From: Acidobacteriaceae bacterium
GTDB taxonomy: Bacteria > Acidobacteriota > Terriglobia > Terriglobales > Acidobacteriaceae
Reading direction: 5' to 3'
NCBI GenBank assembly: GCA_003134655.1
Contig: PLBY01000063.1
Location: forward strand, 401-64,400
Length of the DNA stretch: 64,000 nt
Shown: positions 3,710 through 52,992 of the stretch, piece after piece
How the letters are laid out: each line of letters starts with the position of its first letter
Position numbering within the stretch: position 1 is the first letter of the stretch
Position numbers and translations under genes: made by a program
The notes under the pieces: model-generated
Seen by the model: only the letters and a program-made list of their open reading frames with translations
Databases searched by the model: none
What the model was told of the DNA's origin: nothing

Positions 3710-3904
3710 GTGCACCTCTGGCGAGTCGATCTGGAGGCCATACGTGCCGACGAATCCCGCTGGCAAGAGGTACTCTCTCCCGACGAAGCGACGCGCGCTT
3801 CCCGCTTTCATTTTCGCCGTGACCGTCAGCGCTTTGTAGCGTCACGAGCGCTGTTGAGGACAATCCTGGCCGGCTACCTACGGGCTGCGGTGCGCCCGCC
3901 GACG
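3710..3904 (+). pseudogene. N-terminal fragment of an Sfp-type 4'-phosphopantetheinyl transferase
   Basis: (V)HLWRVDLEAIRADESRWQEVLSPDEATRASRFHFRRDRQRFVASRALLRTILAGYL matches the usual PPTase N-terminus (VHLW...LS.dE..Ra.rF....Dr.rf...r.llR.lL). The catalytic core is absent. The reading frame runs straight into unrelated membrane sequence. Confidence 0.6.
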
Positions 3905-4261
3905 ATGAAGTCATTCGCCTGGATGTGGCTCATCGGCCTGGTGGCGGGCTTTCTGGTGGGCATTACCTCCGTCGGCTCCGGCAGCATTGTCATGATGATG
4001 CTTTTGCTGTTCTACAGCTTTCAGCCGAAGGTGATGGTGGGCACCGACATCGTGCACGCCCTGATCCTCACTGGCGTCACTAGTCTTCCCCATTTTCGTA
4101 TGCACAATGTCGATACCCACCTTGTCGGGGCGCTTTTGATCGGCTCGATTCCGGGTGGATTGTTCGGTTCGTACTTGAGTACGCGGGTCCCGGTTCCGTG
4201 GCTGAGGCGTATCCTGTGCGCTGTGCTGCTAGCGACGGGTGCGCACATGCCCATGGCTTGA
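3905..4261 (+). pseudogene. C-terminal half of a TSUP (TauE/SafE-type) anion exporter, possibly expressed as a truncated ORF from ATG 3905
   Basis: MKSFAWMWLIGLVAGFLVGITSVGSGSIV...IGSIPGGLFGSYLSTRVPVPWLRRILCAVLLATG is one 4-TM repeat of the 4+4 TM TSUP fold. It shares a frame with the PPTase fragment (chimeric track ORF 3710..4261). Confidence 0.55.
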
Positions 4262-17011: not shown

Positions 17012-17788
17012 ATGCCCAAGCATTCCATCGTCTTTCTGATGTATCACGAGTTGGAGATCCCGGGACGGCGTCTGTGCCAGCCCGAACTGGGGTATGCTCG
17101 TTATGTCCTGCCGGAGCCCGATTTTCGCGCGCAAATGGATCACTTGGAGATGAATGGATGGCAAGGACTCAGCGTCGGCCAAGCTCTCTCATTTCCGGAG
17201 GGACGTAACGTGACCATCACATTCGACGATGGCTGCGAAACGGACCTCCTGGCAGCGGCTCCGATCCTGCGGCAATCCGGTTTCAACGCAACCTTCTTCA
17301 TCACTTGCGAGAGGTTGGGAAAGGCTGGCTATCTTTCGCCCGCGCAGCTCAAAGAACTCAGCGGGCAGGGTTTCGAAATCGGCTGTCACTCGATGACTCA
17401 CCCCTACCTCACCGATCTCGACGCGAGCGGCCTGCGGCACGAAATCTCCGACGCCAAGTCGCAACTGGAGCAGATAATCGGCCAGCCAGTGGACCACTTC
17501 TCTTGCCCTGGAGGACGCTGCGATCAGCGGGTTGTGACCGTGGCACGCGCCGCCGGCTACCGGACGGTCGCCACTAGCCGCATTCAGGAGAATACCAGAA
17601 GCACAGACGTTTTTGCGTTGGGCCGAGTAGCGATGTTGCGAGATATTCCCTTGAGCGCGTTTGCCGCGATCTGCGAGGGCAGGCCATTGTCCAGCATGCG
17701 CGCTCAGAGCGCGTTTCGCGAGGCTGCCAGGCAGATCCTGGGCAACTCCCTCTATGATCGTTTGCGAGCCACCTTACTGCATCGCTAA
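17012..17788 (+). CDS. Polysaccharide deacetylase (CE4 / NodB homology domain)
   Basis: ITFDDGCETD (TFDDG motif), GCHSMTHP (HSxxH motif) and a later CPGG segment, in the canonical NodB-domain order. Confidence 0.85.
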   Translation: MPKHSIVFLMYHELEIPGRRLCQPELGYARYVLPEPDFRAQMDHLEMNGWQGLSVGQALSFPEGRNVTITFDDGCETDLLAAAPILRQSGFNATFFITCERLGKAGYLSPAQLKELSGQGFEIGCHSMTHPYLTDLDASGLRHEISDAKSQLEQIIGQPVDHFSCPGGRCDQRVVTVARAAGYRTVATSRIQENTRSTDVFALGRVAMLRDIPLSAFAAICEGRPLSSMRAQSAFREAARQILGNSLYDRLRATLLHR

Positions 17789-18174: not shown

Positions 18175-19566
18175 ATGAAACTCTTCCTTCCGTGGGTCAC
18201 GGTGCTGGGTTTGAGCGTAGCGGTCTGTGGGGCGGAGAGCTCTGCAAATACGCGCCATGACGCACCCCAGAGCACGTATGTGCCGCAGGAATATTGTGCA
18301 CGCACTGACCGGCGGGTCGAACCCTACCCGGAAAAACAGCCGGCAATCGGAGCAGCGGGATCAATCATCTACGATCCGAGTTTCGGATCGCGCATTCTGC
18401 GCGTCACCGACGGCAGATCGGATCCAAAGCAGGTCGGCCGTCCGCTCTTCACACCGTCTTCCGCGGAGCAGAATTCGTGGAACAAGAACTCCACGATGTT
18501 CTACGTGACTACTTCTGGGGGCTCGTTTCTGCTCTACGATTTCGATCCCGCGACCATGACGGCACGACCGGCCAGGAACCCGAATCTAAACTGGGGGGGG
18601 GAACCACAGTTCAGCTTCCGCCAGGTCAACATCCTCTATGGCATGAATCGCCGGGAACCGATCTTTGAGCAATACGACACATCGAGCGGGCGGGTAGCTG
18701 AAGTAAACGACCTCTCCAAATGCGTCAAACTCGAATCTCGTGACTCGGGACATAATGTTACGGTTAGCGCCGACGACAGCCGGTTCATGACCGTATTGGG
18801 GCCGCAGCAGGACATAAATTACATGGTCTACATCTACGACCGAACGCAGGGGTGCCGCTGGTACAATACGAAGACCGGTGAAATTGGCGGCCAGTGGGGA
18901 CCCAAAGGTACGATTTCGGTTCCTGATCACTTTCTCCTTCATAACGCCCGCATGGCGAAATCTGGGAAGTTCGTTTATATGGTGCGCGGTGGCGGCAGTG
19001 GCAGTGGCATCGGCCATGGCTGGGTGGTTTGGGAGATCGACGGTATGAATATCAGCGTCTGTCCCCGAGGGTGTGGTGGACACCACGCGCTGGGCTACTC
19101 CCACATCGTTGGTCCTTCCGAGATGTCCCATCCCTTGGACGTGTGGGTGAGACCGCTGAACCATCTGGACGCCTACACTCCGATTATCAGCGGATTGGGG
19201 CCTGCCAAAGGATTTTGGTTCGACTCTCATTTCTCGTGGAACAATGTGGATCCGAATGATTCCGCCCCGGTCTGCTTTTCGACCTACCAACCAGCCAGTC
19301 AGGATACGCCCGGAACGGCGCCACCCGTGACCGCACCATGGGAGAATGAAATCGACTGTGCGGAGACGGATGGGAAGGCTTCCAAGGTTTGGCGGTTTGC
19401 CCACACGTACAGCACCGCCAGAAACGGCTTCTGGTCGAAACCGCGAGGAAATGTTTCGCAGGACGGACACTTCTTCATGTTCACCTCCGATTGGGAAGAC
19501 CAGCTTGGAAAAACACCGAACGGCGACAAATACCGGACTGATGTTTTTATCGTCGAGCTGAAATAA
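18175..19566 (+). CDS. Secreted protein made of the same uncharacterised ~440 aa domain as the C-terminus of 5376..7724
   Basis: Signal peptide MKLFLPWVTVLGLSVAVCGA. Colinear blocks with 5376..7724, e.g. IIYDPSFGSRILRVTD, TGEIGGQWGPKGTI, CGGHHALGYSH, FSWNNVDPND, KVWRFAHTYS, VSQDGHFFMFTSDW, TDVFIVELK. Confidence 0.8.
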   Translation: MKLFLPWVTVLGLSVAVCGAESSANTRHDAPQSTYVPQEYCARTDRRVEPYPEKQPAIGAAGSIIYDPSFGSRILRVTDGRSDPKQVGRPLFTPSSAEQNSWNKNSTMFYVTTSGGSFLLYDFDPATMTARPARNPNLNWGGEPQFSFRQVNILYGMNRREPIFEQYDTSSGRVAEVNDLSKCVKLESRDSGHNVTVSADDSRFMTVLGPQQDINYMVYIYDRTQGCRWYNTKTGEIGGQWGPKGTISVPDHFLLHNARMAKSGKFVYMVRGGGSGSGIGHGWVVWEIDGMNISVCPRGCGGHHALGYSHIVGPSEMSHPLDVWVRPLNHLDAYTPIISGLGPAKGFWFDSHFSWNNVDPNDSAPVCFSTYQPASQDTPGTAPPVTAPWENEIDCAETDGKASKVWRFAHTYSTARNGFWSKPRGNVSQDGHFFMFTSDWEDQLGKTPNGDKYRTDVFIVELK

Positions 19567-19610: not shown

Positions 19611-20066
19611 ATGGAATCTTCCGTGGGTGCAGTCACCCTCTCCCTGGGCACGTTTCATCACATCGGCTTTGTGGTCGCGTCTATTCCAACCTCCGTACAA
19701 GGATTCCTGGACTCGCTGCAGGCGGAGTGGGATGGGACAATTTTTCATGATCCCAATCAAGCCGTGCGCGTGACTTTCCTGCGTGTCAAGCCCGCTGCCA
19801 ATCCTTTGTTCGAACTGGTGGAACCGGCTGGCGAGAATTCGCCGGTGATTCCATTCTTGAAGCGCGGTGGGGGGTTGCACCACCTGTGCTATGAGATCGA
19901 CAATCTGGAGGATCAATTGACTTTGAGCCGCGCCCAAGGTGGACTCGTGGTCAGGCCACCGCTCCCTGCCGTAGCCTTTGAAGGGCGTCGCATCGCCTGG
20001 GTCTACACCAAGAACAAGCTTCTTCTGGAGTATCTGGAGCGCCAAAGAAGGCCCGCTCAGGAATGA
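19611..20066 (+). CDS. VOC-family protein (glyoxalase / methylmalonyl-CoA epimerase-like)
   Basis: FHHIGFVV near the N-terminus and GGGLHHLCYEIDNLE later match the paired metal-binding beta-alpha-beta-beta-beta modules of VOC/epimerase proteins. The stop overlaps the next start (ATGA). Confidence 0.75.
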   Translation: MESSVGAVTLSLGTFHHIGFVVASIPTSVQGFLDSLQAEWDGTIFHDPNQAVRVTFLRVKPAANPLFELVEPAGENSPVIPFLKRGGGLHHLCYEIDNLEDQLTLSRAQGGLVVRPPLPAVAFEGRRIAWVYTKNKLLLEYLERQRRPAQE

Positions 20067-21955
20067 TCTTGGATCCTCAACCTCTGGACCTGCGCAGCGA
20101 AGCCGACCGTCTGATTTCGGGAGGGTCGGCGGAGCTAGCCTCTCTGTGCCTTGCAAACCTCTGGCGCAAAGAAGCAGGCTCTGTCGCCGCAGCTTTCCTG
20201 GTGTCGCGCTTCGAACAACTGCGCGGCAAACTGCCTCTGGTGCCTTATCGCCTCGCGGTTCTACGCTCCTTCACCGTGGAGCCGGCCATTCCTTTGCTCC
20301 GCGCTGAGGCCTTTGTACGTGCCATCGATTTGATCGCGCAGTTGGGAGACTTCAACGCCTACGCGCAGGAAATCCTCGACCCGAATTCTTCTCTTTACCG
20401 TTTTGCCCCCGACGCTGTGGTTCTTGCGGCACAGACTGCGGATGTCGTGCCCGACCTGTGGCATCAGTATGCGGATCTCGCGCCGGAAGCAGTCTCCGCG
20501 GCCATACAGCGCGTCTCCAACAGCTTCGGCCAGTGGATCCGGGCATTTCGGGAGCGCAGTTCCGCCGCGCTGGTCGTGCATTCCTTTGAACTCCCCGCAC
20601 GTCCGAACATGGGACTTCTGGATGCACAGCAAGAGACCGGCCAATCCGCTGCGATCCAGCAGATCAACCAGGCACTCCGGCAGATCGCCGGGGAACATCG
20701 CGGCGTTTATGTGCTCGATTACGATCGACTCGTTGCCCGCCATGGCCGCTTGCGTTGGCATGACGAACGAAAATGGCTCATTGCCAGAATGCCCATTGCC
20801 GCCGATCACCTCGTTTACCTCTCTCGCGAATGGCTGCGTTTCCTGGTTCCGCTTTCCGGGAAAACTGCAAAAGTGCTGGTGGCCGACCTCGATAATACGC
20901 TGTGGGGAGGCGTAATCGGCGAAGATGGTATGACCGGAATCAAACTCGGCCCGGAGTACCCCGGCGCAGCCTATCAGAATGTGCAGCGGGCAATGCTGGA
21001 CCTGACGCGGCGAGGAATCCTGCTGGCCATTTGCAGCAAGAATAATCTCGAAGACGCCATCGAAGCACTGGAGAATCACCCGGGAATGTTGCTGCGGCCA
21101 AAGGATTTCGCCGCTGTGCGCATCAATTGGAGTGACAAGGCGCAGAACCTGCGCGAAATCGCCTCTGAATTAAACGTTGGAACCGATGCCCTCGCTTTTC
21201 TTGACGACAACCCCGTGGAGCGGGAACAGATTCGCAGTGCGCTCCCAGAGGTCACGATTGTCGATCTGCCCGAAGATCCGCTTGCCTACGCGGCCGCAGT
21301 CCGGGATTGCCCGGTATTCGAACGGCTTGCGCTTTCCAGCGAAGATCAACAGCGCACCACCCTGTATGCGGCGCAGCGTGAGCGCTCCCATGCGGAACAG
21401 AGCTTCCAAAGCAAGGAAGACTTCTTTCGTTACCTTGATCAGGAAGCCGAAGTCGTCCCGGTGTCACCGGCTACCCTGGCCCGGGTTGCGCAACTCACGC
21501 AAAAAACCAATCAATTCAACCTGACCACCCGGCGTTACACTGAGCAACAGATCGCCGACTTGGCCGCTCGTCCGGGATGGCAGGTCCTCTCCATCAAGGT
21601 ACGCGACCGGTTTGGCGACCACGGTTTGGTGGGTGTGGCCATTTCCCGCGACGAAGCCGAAACCTGCGAGATTGAAACCTTCCTGCTTAGTTGCCGCGTC
21701 ATTGGCAGAGCCGTGGAAACCGCGCTTCTTTCGCATCTCGCTCGGACCGCCGCGGCTCGCGGCCGCCAGCGGATCCTCGGACGATTCTTGCCCACTAAAA
21801 AGAATGCTCCGGCTCGCGAGTTCTACGCCCTGCACGGGTTTCAGCTTCTCGAGGAGAATCGGGACGGCTCAGTTTGGAGCTTGCCGTTGCAGCATCATAC
21901 AATCGCCACTCCGGATTGGATCCGGTTGAAAACTACCGAGGGAGAGCACAATTGA
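20063..21955 (+). CDS. FkbH-like HAD-IIIC phosphatase/ACP-loading enzyme with C-terminal GNAT-like domain
   Basis: KVLVADLDNTLWGGVIGEDG (HAD motif I DxDxT), ICSKNN, INWSDKAQNLREIA, FLDDNPVERE. The C-terminal LLSCRVIGR block is typical of the FkbH domain family. Confidence 0.85.
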   Translation: MILDPQPLDLRSEADRLISGGSAELASLCLANLWRKEAGSVAAAFLVSRFEQLRGKLPLVPYRLAVLRSFTVEPAIPLLRAEAFVRAIDLIAQLGDFNAYAQEILDPNSSLYRFAPDAVVLAAQTADVVPDLWHQYADLAPEAVSAAIQRVSNSFGQWIRAFRERSSAALVVHSFELPARPNMGLLDAQQETGQSAAIQQINQALRQIAGEHRGVYVLDYDRLVARHGRLRWHDERKWLIARMPIAADHLVYLSREWLRFLVPLSGKTAKVLVADLDNTLWGGVIGEDGMTGIKLGPEYPGAAYQNVQRAMLDLTRRGILLAICSKNNLEDAIEALENHPGMLLRPKDFAAVRINWSDKAQNLREIASELNVGTDALAFLDDNPVEREQIRSALPEVTIVDLPEDPLAYAAAVRDCPVFERLALSSEDQQRTTLYAAQRERSHAEQSFQSKEDFFRYLDQEAEVVPVSPATLARVAQLTQKTNQFNLTTRRYTEQQIADLAARPGWQVLSIKVRDRFGDHGLVGVAISRDEAETCEIETFLLSCRVIGRAVETALLSHLARTAAARGRQRILGRFLPTKKNAPAREFYALHGFQLLEENRDGSVWSLPLQHHTIATPDWIRLKTTEGEHN

Positions 21956-22200
21956 CGTTAACCATTCTCGAGCAGGTTCGAGGCGTAGCATCCGATCTTT
22001 TCAATGTCCCCGTGGATCGAATCAAGGCTGAGTCTTCGCCGGAAACGATCGAGGCCTGGGATTCCACTCAGCACCTCAACTTCGTCCTTGCGTTAGAAGA
22101 GAAGTTCGGCCTTCAATTGTCTCCGGAAGAAATGGAGCAGATGCGGAATGTTGACGAAGCCGCGAGGCTGGTCGAGAGCAAGCTGCAAAGTCCGCGCTAG
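21952..22200 (+). CDS. Acyl carrier protein
   Basis: 82 aa from TTG 21952, overlapping the FkbH stop (TTGA). Phosphopantetheine-site context EAWDSTQHLNFVLALEEKFG (DS motif followed by helix II). Confidence 0.75.
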   Translation: MTLTILEQVRGVASDLFNVPVDRIKAESSPETIEAWDSTQHLNFVLALEEKFGLQLSPEEMEQMRNVDEAARLVESKLQSPR

Positions 22201-22250
22201 CCGGGACGTGTCCATCTCTCGCAACGTGTTGGCCGGTTGTCACGCCCGCC

Positions 22251-23372
22251 ATGCCTATCGTCATCCAGCCATATCGTGAAGAGCATCAGCCGGCGGTGCA
22301 GGAGTTCAATCAGCGCTTGCAGTCCGGCGGCGCAGACCCTGACCTCGTATTTTTTACTTTCGCCCAGCCGCGTTGGTTGCCCCACGCTGACGGCGCAAGC
22401 CTGTACCAGGAGTATTTCGTCGCGCTGGAAAATGGCACAGTCCGTGGCGGCTACGCCCTCAAACGGCAGAACTTCTTCTTCGCCGATGGCGTCACTCGCA
22501 ACGTGGCCTACTACCACCATCCCCTTTCGGAGGGCATCGTCAACAAATCCTATGCGGCAGTAGGGAGCATGTTGCTGAAAGATGCCATGAGCCGGTCTCC
22601 CCTGCTCTACTGCCTCGGCATGGGCGGGTATGATCGCCCATTGCCCAAGATGCTCATCCGCCTGGGCTGGGCCCACTTTGCGGTCCCTTTCTATTTCAAT
22701 GTTGTGCGTCCCAATCGTTTCTTCCGGGAGATACAGGCGCTGCGAAAGTCTCCTTTCCGCAGGTTGATCCTGAATCTGGCTGCCTGGACCGGGACGGGCT
22801 GGGCTGGAGTCAAGACGATCCAGGGTCTTCGAAAGTTACGCGCACCGAAGGTGGGCTCGTTCACCGCCGAGCGAGTCGAGGGTTTTTCAGATTGGGTCGA
22901 TCCGCTGTGGGAGCAAGCAAAGAATCACTATGCGATGACCGCCGTACGAGATTGTCAGACTATGCGCACCCTGTATCCCGCAAGCGACACGCATTTTACC
23001 CGCCTGCGAGTGCGCCGGGGCGGGCAAGATATTGGCTGGGCTGTGGTCGGAGAGCGCCGGAAAGATGAAAAATACGGCGCGATGCGCGTGGGTTCGATCG
23101 TGGATTGCTGGGCTGCGCCGGAAAACGTCTTACCCGTGCTTCAAGGGGCTTCAACAACGCTGGTGGATCTGGGAGCGGATCTGATCGTCTCCAACCAAAG
23201 CCATCATCTCTGGGCTCACGCTCTTGAGCATGCCGGCTTCTTGAACTCGCCGTCCAATTTCATTTTTGCCGCCGGGAAGAGTCTAAGTGCGCTGCTGCAA
23301 CCCATTGCAGAGAGCCAATCTCGTCTCCACTTCACCCGCGCGGACGGCGACGGATTACCCCGCAACTTCTAA
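22251..23372 (+). CDS. Putative acyl/acetyltransferase (GNAT-like), assignment tentative
   Basis: 373 aa ORF directly downstream of the ACP. N-terminus IVIQPYREEHQPAVQEFNQRL resembles GNAT-type proteins found in EPS loci. No catalytic motif confidently identified. Confidence 0.45.
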   Translation: MPIVIQPYREEHQPAVQEFNQRLQSGGADPDLVFFTFAQPRWLPHADGASLYQEYFVALENGTVRGGYALKRQNFFFADGVTRNVAYYHHPLSEGIVNKSYAAVGSMLLKDAMSRSPLLYCLGMGGYDRPLPKMLIRLGWAHFAVPFYFNVVRPNRFFREIQALRKSPFRRLILNLAAWTGTGWAGVKTIQGLRKLRAPKVGSFTAERVEGFSDWVDPLWEQAKNHYAMTAVRDCQTMRTLYPASDTHFTRLRVRRGGQDIGWAVVGERRKDEKYGAMRVGSIVDCWAAPENVLPVLQGASTTLVDLGADLIVSNQSHHLWAHALEHAGFLNSPSNFIFAAGKSLSALLQPIAESQSRLHFTRADGDGLPRNF

Positions 23373-23392: not shown

Positions 23393-24256
23393 CTACTTCT
23401 CCTGGTGGGAACTTTCTGCGGTTGGGTCGAGACCTGGCGTCGCGAGTTCGTACCCAAGGTCCCGCATCAGATGACCCCAATGCGTCTCGATATGTGCAAC
23501 GGTTTTTTCGGGTAGCACCGTTTTCCAGCCGCCAGAGGTTGCATTGCGGACAAAAGGCTTGTCCTGGCGCGTGAGCGTGGTCGCAACCCACTTTCCACTT
23601 TCTTTGCTTTCCAGCTTTCTCATATTTTCGGCGGAACTCAGCTCGACAGCCCGGGCTAGACGCTCCGGCGTGGCCTCTATCCCCAGAAACTCCGCGACGC
23701 GCGCAAGTTCCTGCTGAGGGTTGTTCTTCAGGTCTTCATAGCGCAACAGCAGGAAACCCTCATGCCCCTGCCGCGTGGCCAACCAACTGCTTACGTGATC
23801 TCCCCAGGAACCGATGCGAGGCCAGAATTGCGGGGCCATCCAGCGCGGCACGAACTCATCAATCGGGTATCCCTCTTTTACAGATCGCAGCTTGAGTTCC
23901 CAGTGATAGTTCGACACCGCGACATCCCGCGGGTCGCGCACAATGTAGATGACCTTCCGGTATCGCGGATCGAAGCATTCATGGCTCTTCATGGTGCGCG
24001 GCCGCGGAAGGTTGCGGAGCACCCGGTCGGAATGCTTGTACATGTCCGGAACCAACCGTTCCACGCTGAGGAACGTGACCTCGTCGTTCTGATGAACCAG
24101 ATTTCCAATCAAAAAGCGCGTCCATGTATTACCCGAGCGTGGATAAGAGGTAAGAAACACGTCATCCGGAAAGATTGTGATGTCCCGCTCAACTCTGAGC
24201 TTGCGAAAAAGTACGTCGCTGACACGCGAAAGGTGCTTGAGTCCCCTTTTCAGCAT
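23393..24256 (-). CDS. PAPS-dependent sulfotransferase
   Basis: 5'-PSB motif SYPRSGNTW and 3'-PB motif RDPRDVAVSNYH. Start taken at ATG 24254-24256 (MLKRGLKH); the longer track ORF would overlap the upstream gene. Confidence 0.85.
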   Translation of the reverse strand: MLKRGLKHLSRVSDVLFRKLRVERDITIFPDDVFLTSYPRSGNTWTRFLIGNLVHQNDEVTFLSVERLVPDMYKHSDRVLRNLPRPRTMKSHECFDPRYRKVIYIVRDPRDVAVSNYHWELKLRSVKEGYPIDEFVPRWMAPQFWPRIGSWGDHVSSWLATRQGHEGFLLLRYEDLKNNPQQELARVAEFLGIEATPERLARAVELSSAENMRKLESKESGKWVATTLTRQDKPFVRNATSGGWKTVLPEKTVAHIETHWGHLMRDLGYELATPGLDPTAESSHQEK

Positions 24257-24470
24257 TTCTTTGCCTCGGATTTTGGAGCCGCTCTCATGAATCGTTCGAT
24301 CCTGCTGGCGCAGGCGTGACTTTTTGATTTTAACAAGGGATGTGAAGGGGGTATCGTCACACTTATAGTTACCAAAGATTGCGTCTGGATCCCACTGCAA
24401 GGAGAGACAAGGGGCTCGCCGCGCCAATCCGGCATGAATCAATGGCAATTCCGGGCCGCTGCAGCTAATT

Positions 24471-25511
24471 CTAGGATTCCCCTGAGCCGGTTCCATCGCT
24501 CCCCGGGGATTTTCGGCGGCTCTGCAACCACCCTTGCAACCGTTGTTTTCTCGCGAACATGGCCTTGGCTTGTCCCCGCAGCGTCGAGATGAAGCCAAAG
24601 CGCGACTTGGTGAACCAGGGCACGCGGTGTGGAACACATCCGTATTTCTCTTTGTAGGTGCCTTCCCCGCCCCAATCGTAGATTTCGGCCCCGCGGTGTT
24701 TCCAGTACTTCATGGCGTACCAGTGAATGGCCTCGTTCGGGCGCAAGCTCTGGCCGGAACGAAAACTTGCATTGCCCCAGAATTCAGCAATCTTGTTGAA
24801 GCCGGGAAAGATTCCCGTGGCTATGCACTTCCCTTCGGTGTCGCGCGCTCGCACCAGCAAGACGCGGCCGGCGGGTTCGAGATTTCTAACCAGTGCCCGA
24901 ACCCGCTCGACGCTATAGGTGGGAACCAAACCTTGCTTCGCGAATACGTCCTTCAATTGTTCGTAGTATTCGTCCGCGAAATCGAGATCGTGCGCCTCCT
25001 CGATGGCGACGCCGCTCTTCTCCGCCTTGCGCACACAGCGGCGACAGGCGCTATCCATTTTGCTGAACAGTTTGTCTTCCGTTTCGGTAAGATCGCTGCG
25101 ATACGAGGCGTAGGATTCACACGTAAACCCAATTTCCTTGCCGTCGTCGACGGAAAAGAACGGATCGGACACCTCCATGTGCAGGCACTTCAACGTGTCC
25201 CATGCCGTCCGCTCGATGGCCGCCAAAGCAGCCTTGCGCGAGGCTCCCGGCACGAGATTAAATCCCATATAGGGCGTAGTCCACCCCGGAAACGAACTCC
25301 CAAGAATCCGTACCCCGAAGCGAGAAAATACGAGTCCGCTGAAATAGCCAACGGTTTCCCCGCCCTCGGCCAATTCGCAGAGGACGACCTTCGCGCGCTG
25401 GGTTTCGCGCACAAAATGAAGCCATTCACGGGTCTGGAAAATTGTGCGGTCCGCAAAACCGTCCAATCGGGCCCAGTCGGCCACTTCCGGATCGATGATC
25501 TTCGCTTTCAT
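24471..25511 (-). CDS. FemAB-family / GNAT-fold protein of the kind associated with PEP-CTERM EPS loci
   Basis: About 346 aa from MKAKIIDPEVADWARLDGFADRTIFQTREWLHFV. Overall FemAB-like layout (two GNAT-like lobes). Start could also be 25571. Confidence 0.6.
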   Translation of the reverse strand: MKAKIIDPEVADWARLDGFADRTIFQTREWLHFVRETQRAKVVLCELAEGGETVGYFSGLVFSRFGVRILGSSFPGWTTPYMGFNLVPGASRKAALAAIERTAWDTLKCLHMEVSDPFFSVDDGKEIGFTCESYASYRSDLTETEDKLFSKMDSACRRCVRKAEKSGVAIEEAHDLDFADEYYEQLKDVFAKQGLVPTYSVERVRALVRNLEPAGRVLLVRARDTEGKCIATGIFPGFNKIAEFWGNASFRSGQSLRPNEAIHWYAMKYWKHRGAEIYDWGGEGTYKEKYGCVPHRVPWFTKSRFGFISTLRGQAKAMFARKQRLQGWLQSRRKSPGSDGTGSGES

Positions 25512-25599
25512 TCCCAAGGATTCCAGATGGTGATCATTTGCGAATCGCTGTTGATTAGTTGCACTAAACAACCGTCGGATACGTACGCGGAAATCATGC

Positions 25600-52383: not shown

Positions 52384-52992
52384 TTAGCCCTTCAGCTTGC
52401 GACGAACCAGTCCAGCCAGACCGATCAACCCAGTTCCCAACAGGCTCAACGAGCCCGGTTCCGGAACTACGATGTTCGTGTCACCGCTCGAAATGGTCGT
52501 GCTGCCGTTGAAGTAGCCTCTGCCGGTGTTGATCGTCAACTGCACGGTCACACCTACGGTCGCCGCTCCGGAGCCGGTCCAGCCCGTTAGGGCGCCGGTC
52601 AGAGTGTAGTTATGCGTTCCGTTGGCCAGAGTCACCAGCGTCCAGGTCACAGGACCGTCAAACGTTCCCGTAAACAGGGTTCCGTTCGGAACTCCGCTGG
52701 TGCCGTTTCCAGTGATGGTGAACCATCCACCACCCGCGAATGTGCCGCCCATTTGCAACGAACCGCTCGTGAGGGCACCGGTTGAGAAGCCGACGCTGCC
52801 CAGGTTGTTCCCTGTGATCAGCCCGCCTCCATTGAGCCCATTAACGGCAATCAAGACGGATCCGCTCAGCGAAAGTCCCGCGCTCGAACCCGACAAGGTA
52901 CCGCCACTATTGGTGTAGTCTACGCTGCTGCCGGCAAACATCGCCGTTGGCAGGGCCAGTGCCAGTACAGCAAGCAAGAGGATTTTCTTCAT
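52384..52992 (-). CDS. PEP-CTERM sorting-domain protein (Gly/Ser/Thr-rich secreted protein)
   Basis: Signal peptide MKKILLLAVLALALPTAMFA. Canonical C-terminus VPEPGSLSLLGTGLIGLAGLVRRKLKG (PEP motif, TM, basic cluster). AGGAG RBS. Confidence 0.9.
   Translation of the reverse strand: MKKILLLAVLALALPTAMFAGSSVDYTNSGGTLSGSSAGLSLSGSVLIAVNGLNGGGLITGNNLGSVGFSTGALTSGSLQMGGTFAGGGWFTITGNGTSGVPNGTLFTGTFDGPVTWTLVTLANGTHNYTLTGALTGWTGSGAATVGVTVQLTINTGRGYFNGSTTISSGDTNIVVPEPGSLSLLGTGLIGLAGLVRRKLKG

Follow-up and report, generated by a model that had tools for sequence, protein, structure and literature searches.

Organization of the cassette

We analysed a 64,000-nt stretch of DNA from Acidobacteriaceae bacterium GCA_003134655.1 (contig PLBY01000063.1, positions 401-64,400; contig C38 in our genome analysis), referred to here as the window, which carries an exopolysaccharide (EPS) locus of the exosortase type. 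The subject of this work is a cassette of four consecutive genes within it, all on the plus strand, whose products are in order a vicinal oxygen chelate (VOC)-fold enzyme, a full-length FkbH, an 82-aa acyl carrier protein (ACP) and a 373-aa protein assigned below to the tandem GNAT fold. Positions are those of the window.

19611..20066, plus strand: VOC-fold protein, 151 aa, close to methylmalonyl-CoA epimerase and to small proteins of the glyoxalase-I-like type; not present in every cassette
20063..21955, plus strand: FkbH, full-length, 630 aa, comprising FkbH_N (SGNH-like), a phosphatase domain of the HAD-IIIC type and, at the C-terminus, a GNAT-like domain containing the cysteine of an SCRV motif
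21952..22200, plus strand: ACP, 82 aa, started from a TTG codon; Ser38 of its WDS motif is the phosphopantetheine serine
22251..23372, plus strand: tandem-GNAT acyltransferase, 373 aa, covered by no family model; putative transferase of the acyl group carried by the ACP

The first three genes overlap. The VOC stop codon and the ATG start of fkbH share the tetranucleotide ATGA at 20063-20066, and the fkbH stop codon and the TTG start of the ACP gene share TTGA at 21952-21955, with a GGGAGAG Shine-Dalgarno sequence just 5' of the TTG. Related loci were collected by a scan of one genome per species, which gave 80 loci, nearly all of them in metagenome-assembled genomes (MAGs) of Terriglobia; counts for these loci are of tblastn matches to the window proteins. 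The codon aligned to the first residue of the ACP was TTG in 56 of these sequences and GTG in five. The 4-nt overlap between FkbH and ACP genes recurred in 45 related loci and that between VOC and FkbH genes in 10, while the ACP gene adjoined the tandem GNAT gene in about 74 loci at a median gap of 37.5 nt. Since the junction overlaps recur in related loci, gene coupling is a conserved feature and not a chance overlap. An earlier reading of the sequence alone (the original prediction) had described the four genes as translationally coupled and had named their products as VOC, FkbH, ACP and GNAT-like; both the overlaps and the identities hold, the GNAT-like label as a fold and from structure.

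FkbH, the carrier protein and the VOC protein

FkbH scored 302.9 bits against TIGR01686 (cut-off 146.65), and 305 bits in a whole-genome search; it scored 67.8 bits against TIGR01681, also matched PF21211, and matched PDB entry 3slr at E 2.4e-47. It was aligned with four partners, namely the second paralogue of the same genome, an FkbH from a polyketide synthase (PKS) cluster on a Methylosinus plasmid, the FkbH of Sinorhizobium meliloti pSymB and that of a Maritalea plasmid. The positions D275/D277/T279, S325-K326-N327, D381-D382 and S543-C544-R545-V546 were invariant throughout, and both the DxDxT and the SCR[VIL] motif were retained in 69 of 70 FkbH orthologues. FkbH domains are known to load and dephosphorylate 1,3-bisphosphoglycerate, giving a glyceryl-carrier thioester (PMC8949500, PMC13122637). 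Because the motifs and the SCRV cysteine are common to the FkbH of a PKS cluster, they support the reading of a glyceryl-ACP here.

The single orthologue of the 70 without DxDxT belongs to locus L011, where the FkbH match precedes the tandem GNAT gene by about 2.2 kb and shows 52% identity as against 81-91% for its neighbours; the gene may be in decay or may have been exchanged for another. The second FkbH paralogue of the genome (638 aa, contig C44, L009:7787-14443) lacks FkbH_N, its N-terminal region being Cys-rich instead, and retains the DLDNTLW and SCRV motifs. It lies in another polysaccharide locus, directly 3' of a CE4 gene and before a Wzy-like gene and a gene for an Acetyltransf_6 protein, with no ACP gene nearby.

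The ACP matched PF00550 at 22.5 bits (cut-off 20.8) and fell below the cut-off of every NCBIfam ACP model, and is therefore a divergent ACP. The W[DE]S motif was retained in 74/74 homologues. Its activation had been predicted to depend on a phosphopantetheinyl transferase (PPTase) encoded outside the window; this agrees with a genome search, which gave four intact loci for PPTases with an ACPS domain, on contigs C40, C25, C20 and C132.

The VOC protein matched PF13669 (Glyoxalase_4) at 51.6 bits and the methylmalonyl-CoA epimerase model TIGR03081 at 47.3 bits, below the equivalog cut-off of 114.95, together with PDB entry 2qh0 (E 1.6e-11) and human methylmalonyl-CoA epimerase (E 1e-7). Its motifs HHIG, ELVEP, HHLCYE and LLEYLE align to the metal-site blocks of glyoxalase-I-like and epimerase structures. 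The protein was found in 49-50 of the 80 related loci, and a profile search showed it to be truly absent from about 23 that have enough upstream sequence, so that the VOC protein is an optional part of the cassette.

The 373-aa protein

The last protein of the cassette gave no Pfam or NCBIfam match at E 0.01 or better and no sequence match in the PDB. It was modelled with AlphaFold2 from an input of 49 diverse members, and the resulting model (predicted local distance difference test score 95.2, predicted TM-score 0.91) contains two GNAT folds. N-myristoyltransferases (NMT) were the top matches in a Foldseek search (E 3e-10, TM about 0.52). VIA alignment gave Z scores of 19.6 for NMT 8fbt (root-mean-square deviation 5.0, 305 residues aligned), 17.4 for Eis2, 16.6 for the MAB_4324 tandem GNAT 7q3a and 14.7 for MshD, and lower scores for FemX (11.2), FemA (10.9) and MprF (9.9). 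As modelled, the 373-aa protein is a tandem GNAT that stands closer to the acyl-CoA-dependent amine acyltransferases than to the Fem enzymes that use aminoacyl-tRNA. It shares with NMT, Eis, MshD and MAB_4324 a two-GNAT fold over residues 1-367 (Z 14.7-19.6), but differs from them in its low identity (6-8% to NMT, 6-12% to tandem-GNAT structures in general), in the absence of a Pfam GNAT match and in its proposed donor, an acyl-ACP instead of an acyl-CoA. Because this fold is closest to that of the amine acylators NMT, Eis and MshD, it supports a reading in which the protein transfers an acyl group to nitrogen.

The family comprises 1636 matches in a clustered database, all described as hypothetical and mostly from Acidobacteriota, and 1044 representatives at 50% identity, with which the Atlas clusters agree; in the Atlas clusters that look alike, PF00583 was present in 13-69% of members. 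There was no match in the plasmid collection.

In several proteins the tandem GNAT is fused directly behind a carrier domain of the NRPS (nonribosomal peptide synthetase) kind. P0171, P0161 and P0275 consist of an AMP-binding domain with an inserted FkbM methyltransferase, a PP-binding domain and then the tandem GNAT, and the metagenome contig L090 encodes the same fusion in frame. A carrier domain placed directly before the tandem GNAT implies that the family is able to take an acyl group from phosphopantetheine. A search for longer proteins gave no FkbH-tandem GNAT or ACP-tandem GNAT fusions, which is weak evidence of their absence.

Proteins in which an AMP-binding domain, interrupted by an FkbM methyltransferase, is combined with a PP-binding domain are common in soil metagenomes (L091-L169). 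Their genes frequently form tandems with additional adenylation genes and in some cases lie close to those for Wzx, UDP-glucose dehydrogenase (UGDH) or AsnB; fusion to a tandem GNAT is rare among them.

Genes around the cassette

The genes flanking the cassette are as follows.

17012..17788, plus strand: CE4 polysaccharide deacetylase (PF01522, 93.8 bits), a context gene
23393..24637 (longest open reading frame), minus strand: sulfotransferase of the PAPS (3'-phosphoadenosine 5'-phosphosulfate) type, convergent with the cassette; a possible tailoring enzyme
24471..25571, minus strand: FemAB/VimA-like Acetyltransf_6 protein, 366 aa; a likely partner enzyme of the tandem GNAT

The FemAB-like protein matched PF13480 at 43 bits and FemAB at 23.7 bits. 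In four proteins (P0141, P0276, P0280 and P0281) an Acetyltransf_6 domain is followed by a tandem GNAT, and the N-terminal halves of P0141 and P0276 share 44% and 47% identity with the FemAB-like protein of the window (E 1e-85 and 6e-100). Because the two are fused in relatives, with N-terminal halves that are orthologue-like, the FemAB-like protein and the tandem GNAT probably act in one pathway. The functional unit thus probably extends to the convergent FemAB/VimA-like gene, whose counterpart is fused to a tandem GNAT in at least four proteins, and may include the sulfotransferase as well.

The sulfotransferase matched PF00685 at 142 bits over residues 157-394. Its longest open reading frame (ORF) shares 167 nt with the FemAB-like gene, at the 3' end of the latter; given this overlap, and since the Pfam domain begins only at residue 157, its true start probably lies well inside the ORF. 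The CE4 enzyme could expose a sugar amine for later acylation. As a core gene of the cassette it was ruled out, since no more than 17/80 loci have it at a distance of up to 8 kb.

Also encoded in the window are an exosortase of the XrtD type that contains an EpsI domain (442 bits, cut-off 400), PrsT (344.5 bits, cut-off 312) and a protein with a PEP-CTERM motif at 52384-52992, together with an associated ATPase, Wza-like export, chain-length and tyrosine-kinase genes, glycosyltransferases, Wzx, Wzy and two AsnB-type amidotransferases (TIGR03108, 611 bits against a cut-off of 817). Judged by these gene models, the locus is a genuine PEP-CTERM/exosortase EPS system. The window ORFs scanned include every ORF of at least 400 aa, and among those scanned there was no PKS or nonribosomal peptide synthetase (NRPS), as had been claimed for the surroundings of the cassette, and no FkbK/FkbI-type dehydrogenase, O-methyltransferase or FabH-like enzyme.

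Conservation and distribution of the cassette

In the 80 related loci the tandem GNAT was present in 80/80, the ACP and the sulfotransferase each in 74/80, the FemAB-like protein in 72/80 and FkbH in 70/80, followed by an AsnB-type amidotransferase in 55/80, the VOC protein in 49/80, a heparinase-like protein in 47/80 and UGDH in 45/80. The genes for FkbH, ACP and tandem GNAT were adjacent in about 70 of the 80, and the order VOC-FkbH-ACP-tandem GNAT facing sulfotransferase-FemAB-UGDH held down to 51% identity of the tandem GNAT. The comparison of synteny proposed at the outset thus showed a gene order kept in about 70 of 80 related genomes.

Across the phylum the distribution is patchy. In an even sample of the phylum a single-protein search found the tandem GNAT in 3/201 genomes, and a profile search found it at full length in about 10/401 genomes from at least eight families. 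The same-genus genome G158 retains UGDH, the FemAB-like protein (72% identity) and CE4 but has none of VOC, FkbH, ACP and tandem GNAT; at the matching position it carries a different sulfotransferase, of the Sulfotransfer_3 type. In place of the four genes and of the 463-aa gene that lies upstream of them in the window, G158 has between its FemAB-like and CE4 genes (contig C26, L182, 12877-14676) a gene for a 599-aa protein with no Pfam match. Since G158 keeps UGDH, the FemAB-like protein and CE4 without the four genes, the cassette is best described as an add-on to the EPS locus.

As close relatives lack the gene, the possibility was raised that the contig is foreign to the genome bin. It was rejected, as contig C38 lies inside the main tetranucleotide/GC cloud and the same-family genome G400 has the cassette, with FkbH, ACP and tandem GNAT genes adjoining FemAB and UGDH. 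The three genes are also adjacent in G322. In G094 (contig C208, L183, 3885-12566) one strand carries, in order, FkbH, VOC, tandem GNAT, a 305-aa protein of no assigned type, a FemAB-like protein, LPG_synthase_TM and PMT_2.

Comparison with known systems

The closest biochemical precedents for the FkbH-ACP pair are FkbH/FkbJ (FK520), OzmB/OzmE and related enzymes that load glyceryl onto an ACP in the methoxymalonyl-ACP, hydroxymalonyl-ACP and tetronate pathways. The window FkbH resembles them in scoring above the curated cut-off, in its HAD motifs and SCRV cysteine and in its stand-alone ACP. In contrast to those pathways, however, no FkbI/FkbK-type dehydrogenase, O-methyltransferase, FabH-like enzyme, PKS or NRPS was found in the scanned ORFs, and the cassette, which closes with a tandem GNAT, is part of an EPS locus of the exosortase type. 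A polyketide extender-unit pathway (methoxymalonyl, hydroxymalonyl or tetronate) was considered and rejected, the dehydrogenases and PKS not being found among the scanned window ORFs. The FkbH locus of the Methylosinus plasmid, taken for comparison, does encode FabH, an E2-like protein and a type I PKS, and is a tetronate-type cluster.

A second precedent comes from the NRPS field. The loading module of suomilide consists of an O-methyltransferase, FkbH, a peptidyl carrier protein and a sulfotransferase, and glycerate is there methylated and sulfated after loading (PMC13122637). The suomilide/banyaside protein BslA is thus alike in having glycerate loaded by FkbH onto a carrier beside a sulfotransferase (PMC13122637), but is a module of an NRPS assembly line, whereas the genes here are separate and lie in a glycan locus.

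Genes with an FkbH domain also occur in other glycan loci, sometimes with an 'epimerase'. The flagellar glycosylation locus of Campylobacter jejuni contains the FkbH-domain gene cj1302 and the 'epimerase' cj1301 (PMC7099621), and strain 11168 makes a di-O-methylglyceroyl pseudaminic acid (PMC3068675). Tannerella forsythia makes Pse5Am7Gra; the basis of its glyceroyl group was called 'a major challenge', with the genes unassigned as of 2017 (PMC5378307). The FkbH homologue of the Maritalea plasmid lies in a pseB/NeuB/DUF4910 locus. N-glyceroyl sugars are known products in C. jejuni and T. forsythia. The loci of C. jejuni, T. forsythia and Maritalea differ from the one described here in that their targets are nonulosonic acids of flagellin or S-layer glycans and their partner genes encode DUF4910 and SDR proteins; the cited papers do not demonstrate a link from gene to glyceroyl group there. 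A literature search found no published test of sugar decoration dependent on FkbH and ACP, or of a link between FkbH and polysaccharides.

The neighbours of the cassette recall the Wbp/Vim linking-sugar pathway of Porphyromonas gingivalis and T. forsythia (VimE, VimA, WbpS): enzymes of similar kind, namely CE4, a putative transferase of the FemAB family, a putative AsnB-type amidotransferase and a nucleotide-sugar dehydrogenase, stand together beside a sortase-like system. VimA of P. gingivalis matches pepcterm_femAB; its presumed role is to attach Ser or Gly to an amine of the linking sugar of type IX secretion once the putative CE4 deacetylase VimE has exposed that amine, while WbpS amidates the uronate; that PEP-CTERM systems work likewise is a speculation of the same authors (PMC7468200). 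The differences are that the FemAB-like and AsnB-type proteins of the window score below the equivalog cut-offs, that WbpB, WbpE and WbpD were not among the scanned ORFs, the rest of the genome not having been searched for them, and that nothing in that pathway corresponds to the tandem GNAT, FkbH and ACP.

On S. meliloti pSymB, FkbH and ACP occur with a homologous VOC protein (37% identity, E 8e-15), whose gene is about 3.2 kb upstream of the MBOAT-ACP-FkbH genes. Both loci share this donor module, but the transferase there is a membrane MBOAT of an apparent Dlt-like relay fed by FkbH, which implies acylation outside the cytoplasm, and here a soluble tandem GNAT. From these comparisons FkbH and ACP, often with VOC, look like a portable donor module that is paired with differing transferases, and by analogy the tandem GNAT would be the transferase of the Terriglobia version. 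A Dlt-like MBOAT relay in the window itself was considered and rejected, with no DltB-type MBOAT among the scanned ORFs of at least 400 aa.

The pSymB region (CP140883.1, L170, 2843-8722) has the VOC gene upstream of those for MBOAT, an annotated TonB-dependent receptor, ACP and FkbH, with mobile-element genes (recombinase, transposases) downstream; FkbH matches were found in 40 Sinorhizobium plasmid records.

A proposed route to N-glyceroylated EPS

The reading that we favour is of an accessory decoration module of the exosortase-type EPS locus, in which FkbH makes a glyceryl-ACP, the VOC protein optionally changes it at C2, and the tandem GNAT transfers the acyl group to an amine of the EPS unit. 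All of this chemistry is inferred, and we give the reading a probability of roughly 0.55. A PPTase encoded elsewhere would convert the ACP to its holo form. FkbH would take 1,3-bisphosphoglycerate from glycolysis, its HAD domain removing a phosphate, and the glyceryl group would be held on Cys544 of FkbH before being passed to the phosphopantetheine on Ser38 of the ACP. Where present, the VOC protein would then alter the thioester at C2, most likely by epimerisation. In the last step, placed in the cytoplasm, the tandem GNAT would take the glyceryl group from the ACP and attach it to an amine, either of the EPS repeat unit or of a precursor of that unit, yielding an N-glyceroyl sugar. The original prediction had proposed that an ACP-tethered acyl group decorates either the EPS or a PEP-CTERM protein; a glycolysis-derived C3 acyl group on the EPS is the best-supported reading of the present data, while the protein target found no specific support.

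Two extensions are less certain. The acceptor amine might be that of an amino acid which the FemAB/VimA-like enzyme had added to a sugar after de-N-acetylation; within the favoured reading this is possible but doubtful. The convergent sulfotransferase might sulfate the product. That it acts on the glyceroyl group itself may be so, and is a lead only. The composite in which the FemAB/VimA-like enzyme adds an amino acid to a de-N-acetylated EPS sugar, and the tandem GNAT caps the free amine with a glyceroyl group delivered by the ACP and possibly sulfated, is a speculative picture that we hold to be quite improbable as a whole. Were that free amine also the point at which the exosortase attaches PEP-CTERM proteins, the cassette would decide at each site between a protein and a small acid cap.

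Several observations weigh against the favoured reading. The genomes G355 and G252 (96-97% complete) have a full-length tandem GNAT (43% identity) and no FkbH genome-wide, in G279 neither FkbH nor ACP was found within 9 kb of the tandem GNAT, and the loci L029, L043, L062 and L088 have a tandem GNAT without FkbH-ACP. In G355, G252 and G279 the tandem GNAT stands alone, inside EPS loci. Since members of the family occur without FkbH, the family as such is not tied to FkbH, and the pairing with FkbH-ACP is specific to this cassette. No ACP was detectable on the 16.5-kb contig of G094 that carries FkbH, VOC and tandem GNAT. The carrier-domain fusions form one lineage, and most relatives of that adenylation-methyltransferase-thiolation protein lack a tandem GNAT; in a metagenome scan with P0171 most of the proteins recovered were of the kind without it, and the in-frame fusion was seen only in L090. 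The fold, although common to N-acyltransferases, is compatible with O-acylation too. The FemAB-like protein (54 bits against the TIGR03019 pepcterm_femAB cut-off of 260) and the AsnB-like proteins fall below the NCBIfam equivalog cut-offs, and the Wbp enzymes named above were not among the scanned ORFs. Scans around the cassette for sigma-70 promoters, terminators and sigma-54 patterns gave no signal above chance; they are uninformative and hence lend no support to co-transcription.

Alternative explanations

The free-standing tandem GNATs bear on an alternative in which this protein is an ordinary sugar N-acyltransferase using an acyl-CoA such as acetyl-CoA, while the product of FkbH and ACP goes to another acceptor through an enzyme encoded elsewhere. 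Full-length tandem GNATs in the EPS loci of genomes free of FkbH (G355, G252), those with neither FkbH nor ACP nearby (G279, L029, L043, L062, L088) and the fact that the closest folds all use acyl-CoA speak for it. Yet it leaves the tight adjacency of the ACP and tandem GNAT genes, kept at a short median gap in about 74 loci, without a reason, as it does the fusions of the tandem GNAT directly behind a carrier domain; the cassette holds no other acyltransferase candidate, and tandem GNAT, FkbH and ACP are all missing together in the same-genus genome G158. We regard this alternative as unlikely.

The second alternative, which we think about equally unlikely, holds that the unit carried by the ACP is not plain glycerate, either because FkbH uses another phosphorylated acid or because the VOC protein and the sulfotransferase convert glyceryl-ACP ahead of transfer (for example to a lactyl-type or 3-O-sulfoglyceryl unit or to the L-isomer). 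A VOC protein keeps company with FkbH-ACP in unrelated settings, namely this cassette, plasmid pSymB of S. meliloti and the cj1302 locus, where it is the 'epimerase' (PMC7099621), and a specific orthologue of the sulfotransferase accompanies the cassette in 74/80 loci. In the suomilide module, O-methyltransferase, FkbH, carrier protein and sulfotransferase lead to a methylated, sulfated glycerate (PMC13122637). Against this, the dehydratase or ketoreductase expected for a lactyl-type unit was not found among the scanned window ORFs, and the VOC protein is missing from about 23 otherwise intact cassettes. The cassette-free relative also has a sulfotransferase at that place, although of another type, so that sulfation may target the sugars.

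Least likely of these alternatives is that the product does not decorate the EPS but is a lipid bearing the acyl group, a small molecule or a (PEP-CTERM) protein acylated at its N-terminus. In its favour, N-myristoyltransferase, the closest match by fold, is an acyltransferase of protein N-termini, the G094 cassette lies beside an LPG_synthase_TM (MprF flippase-like) gene, and an exosortase and a PEP-CTERM protein are encoded in the window, but the cassette stands among glycan genes (UGDH, AsnB-type amidotransferase, heparinase-like, glycosyltransferases, Wzx) in nearly all loci, and the likeness to NMT is at the level of the common tandem-GNAT fold, with 6-8% identity.

The favoured reading, N-glyceroylation of the EPS, would bear on several questions. 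N-glyceroyl sugars are known on bacterial surface glycans, and their glyceroyl genes were described as unknown in 2017 (PMC5378307); a conserved unit of FkbH, ACP and transferase in an EPS locus offers a short candidate pathway for this gap between gene and product. If true, it would mean that carrier-protein chemistry of the antibiotic type has been reused on polymers that shape soil aggregation. The tandem-GNAT family, with about 1000 representatives at 50% identity, is without a name, and its fusion to a VimA-like enzyme provides a possible link between the cassette and the question of the targets to which exosortases attach proteins.

Minor features of the window

Two further features complete the description.

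18175-19566: gene for a 463-aa protein with no family match, 44 nt upstream of the VOC gene
3710..3904, plus strand: remnant of the N-terminus of an Sfp-type PPTase, joined to half of a TauE transporter

The 463-aa protein was near the cassette in only 24/80 relatives, at varying distances. The CE4 gene mentioned above lies further upstream. The PPTase remnant had been described as a dead N-terminal stub. This was only partly confirmed: it is fused to half of TauE, and its match to AASDHPPT_N is weak, at 22.4 bits below the cut-off of 27, and covers residues 19-59 of the ORF at 3710-4261, of which TauE spans residues 62-180.

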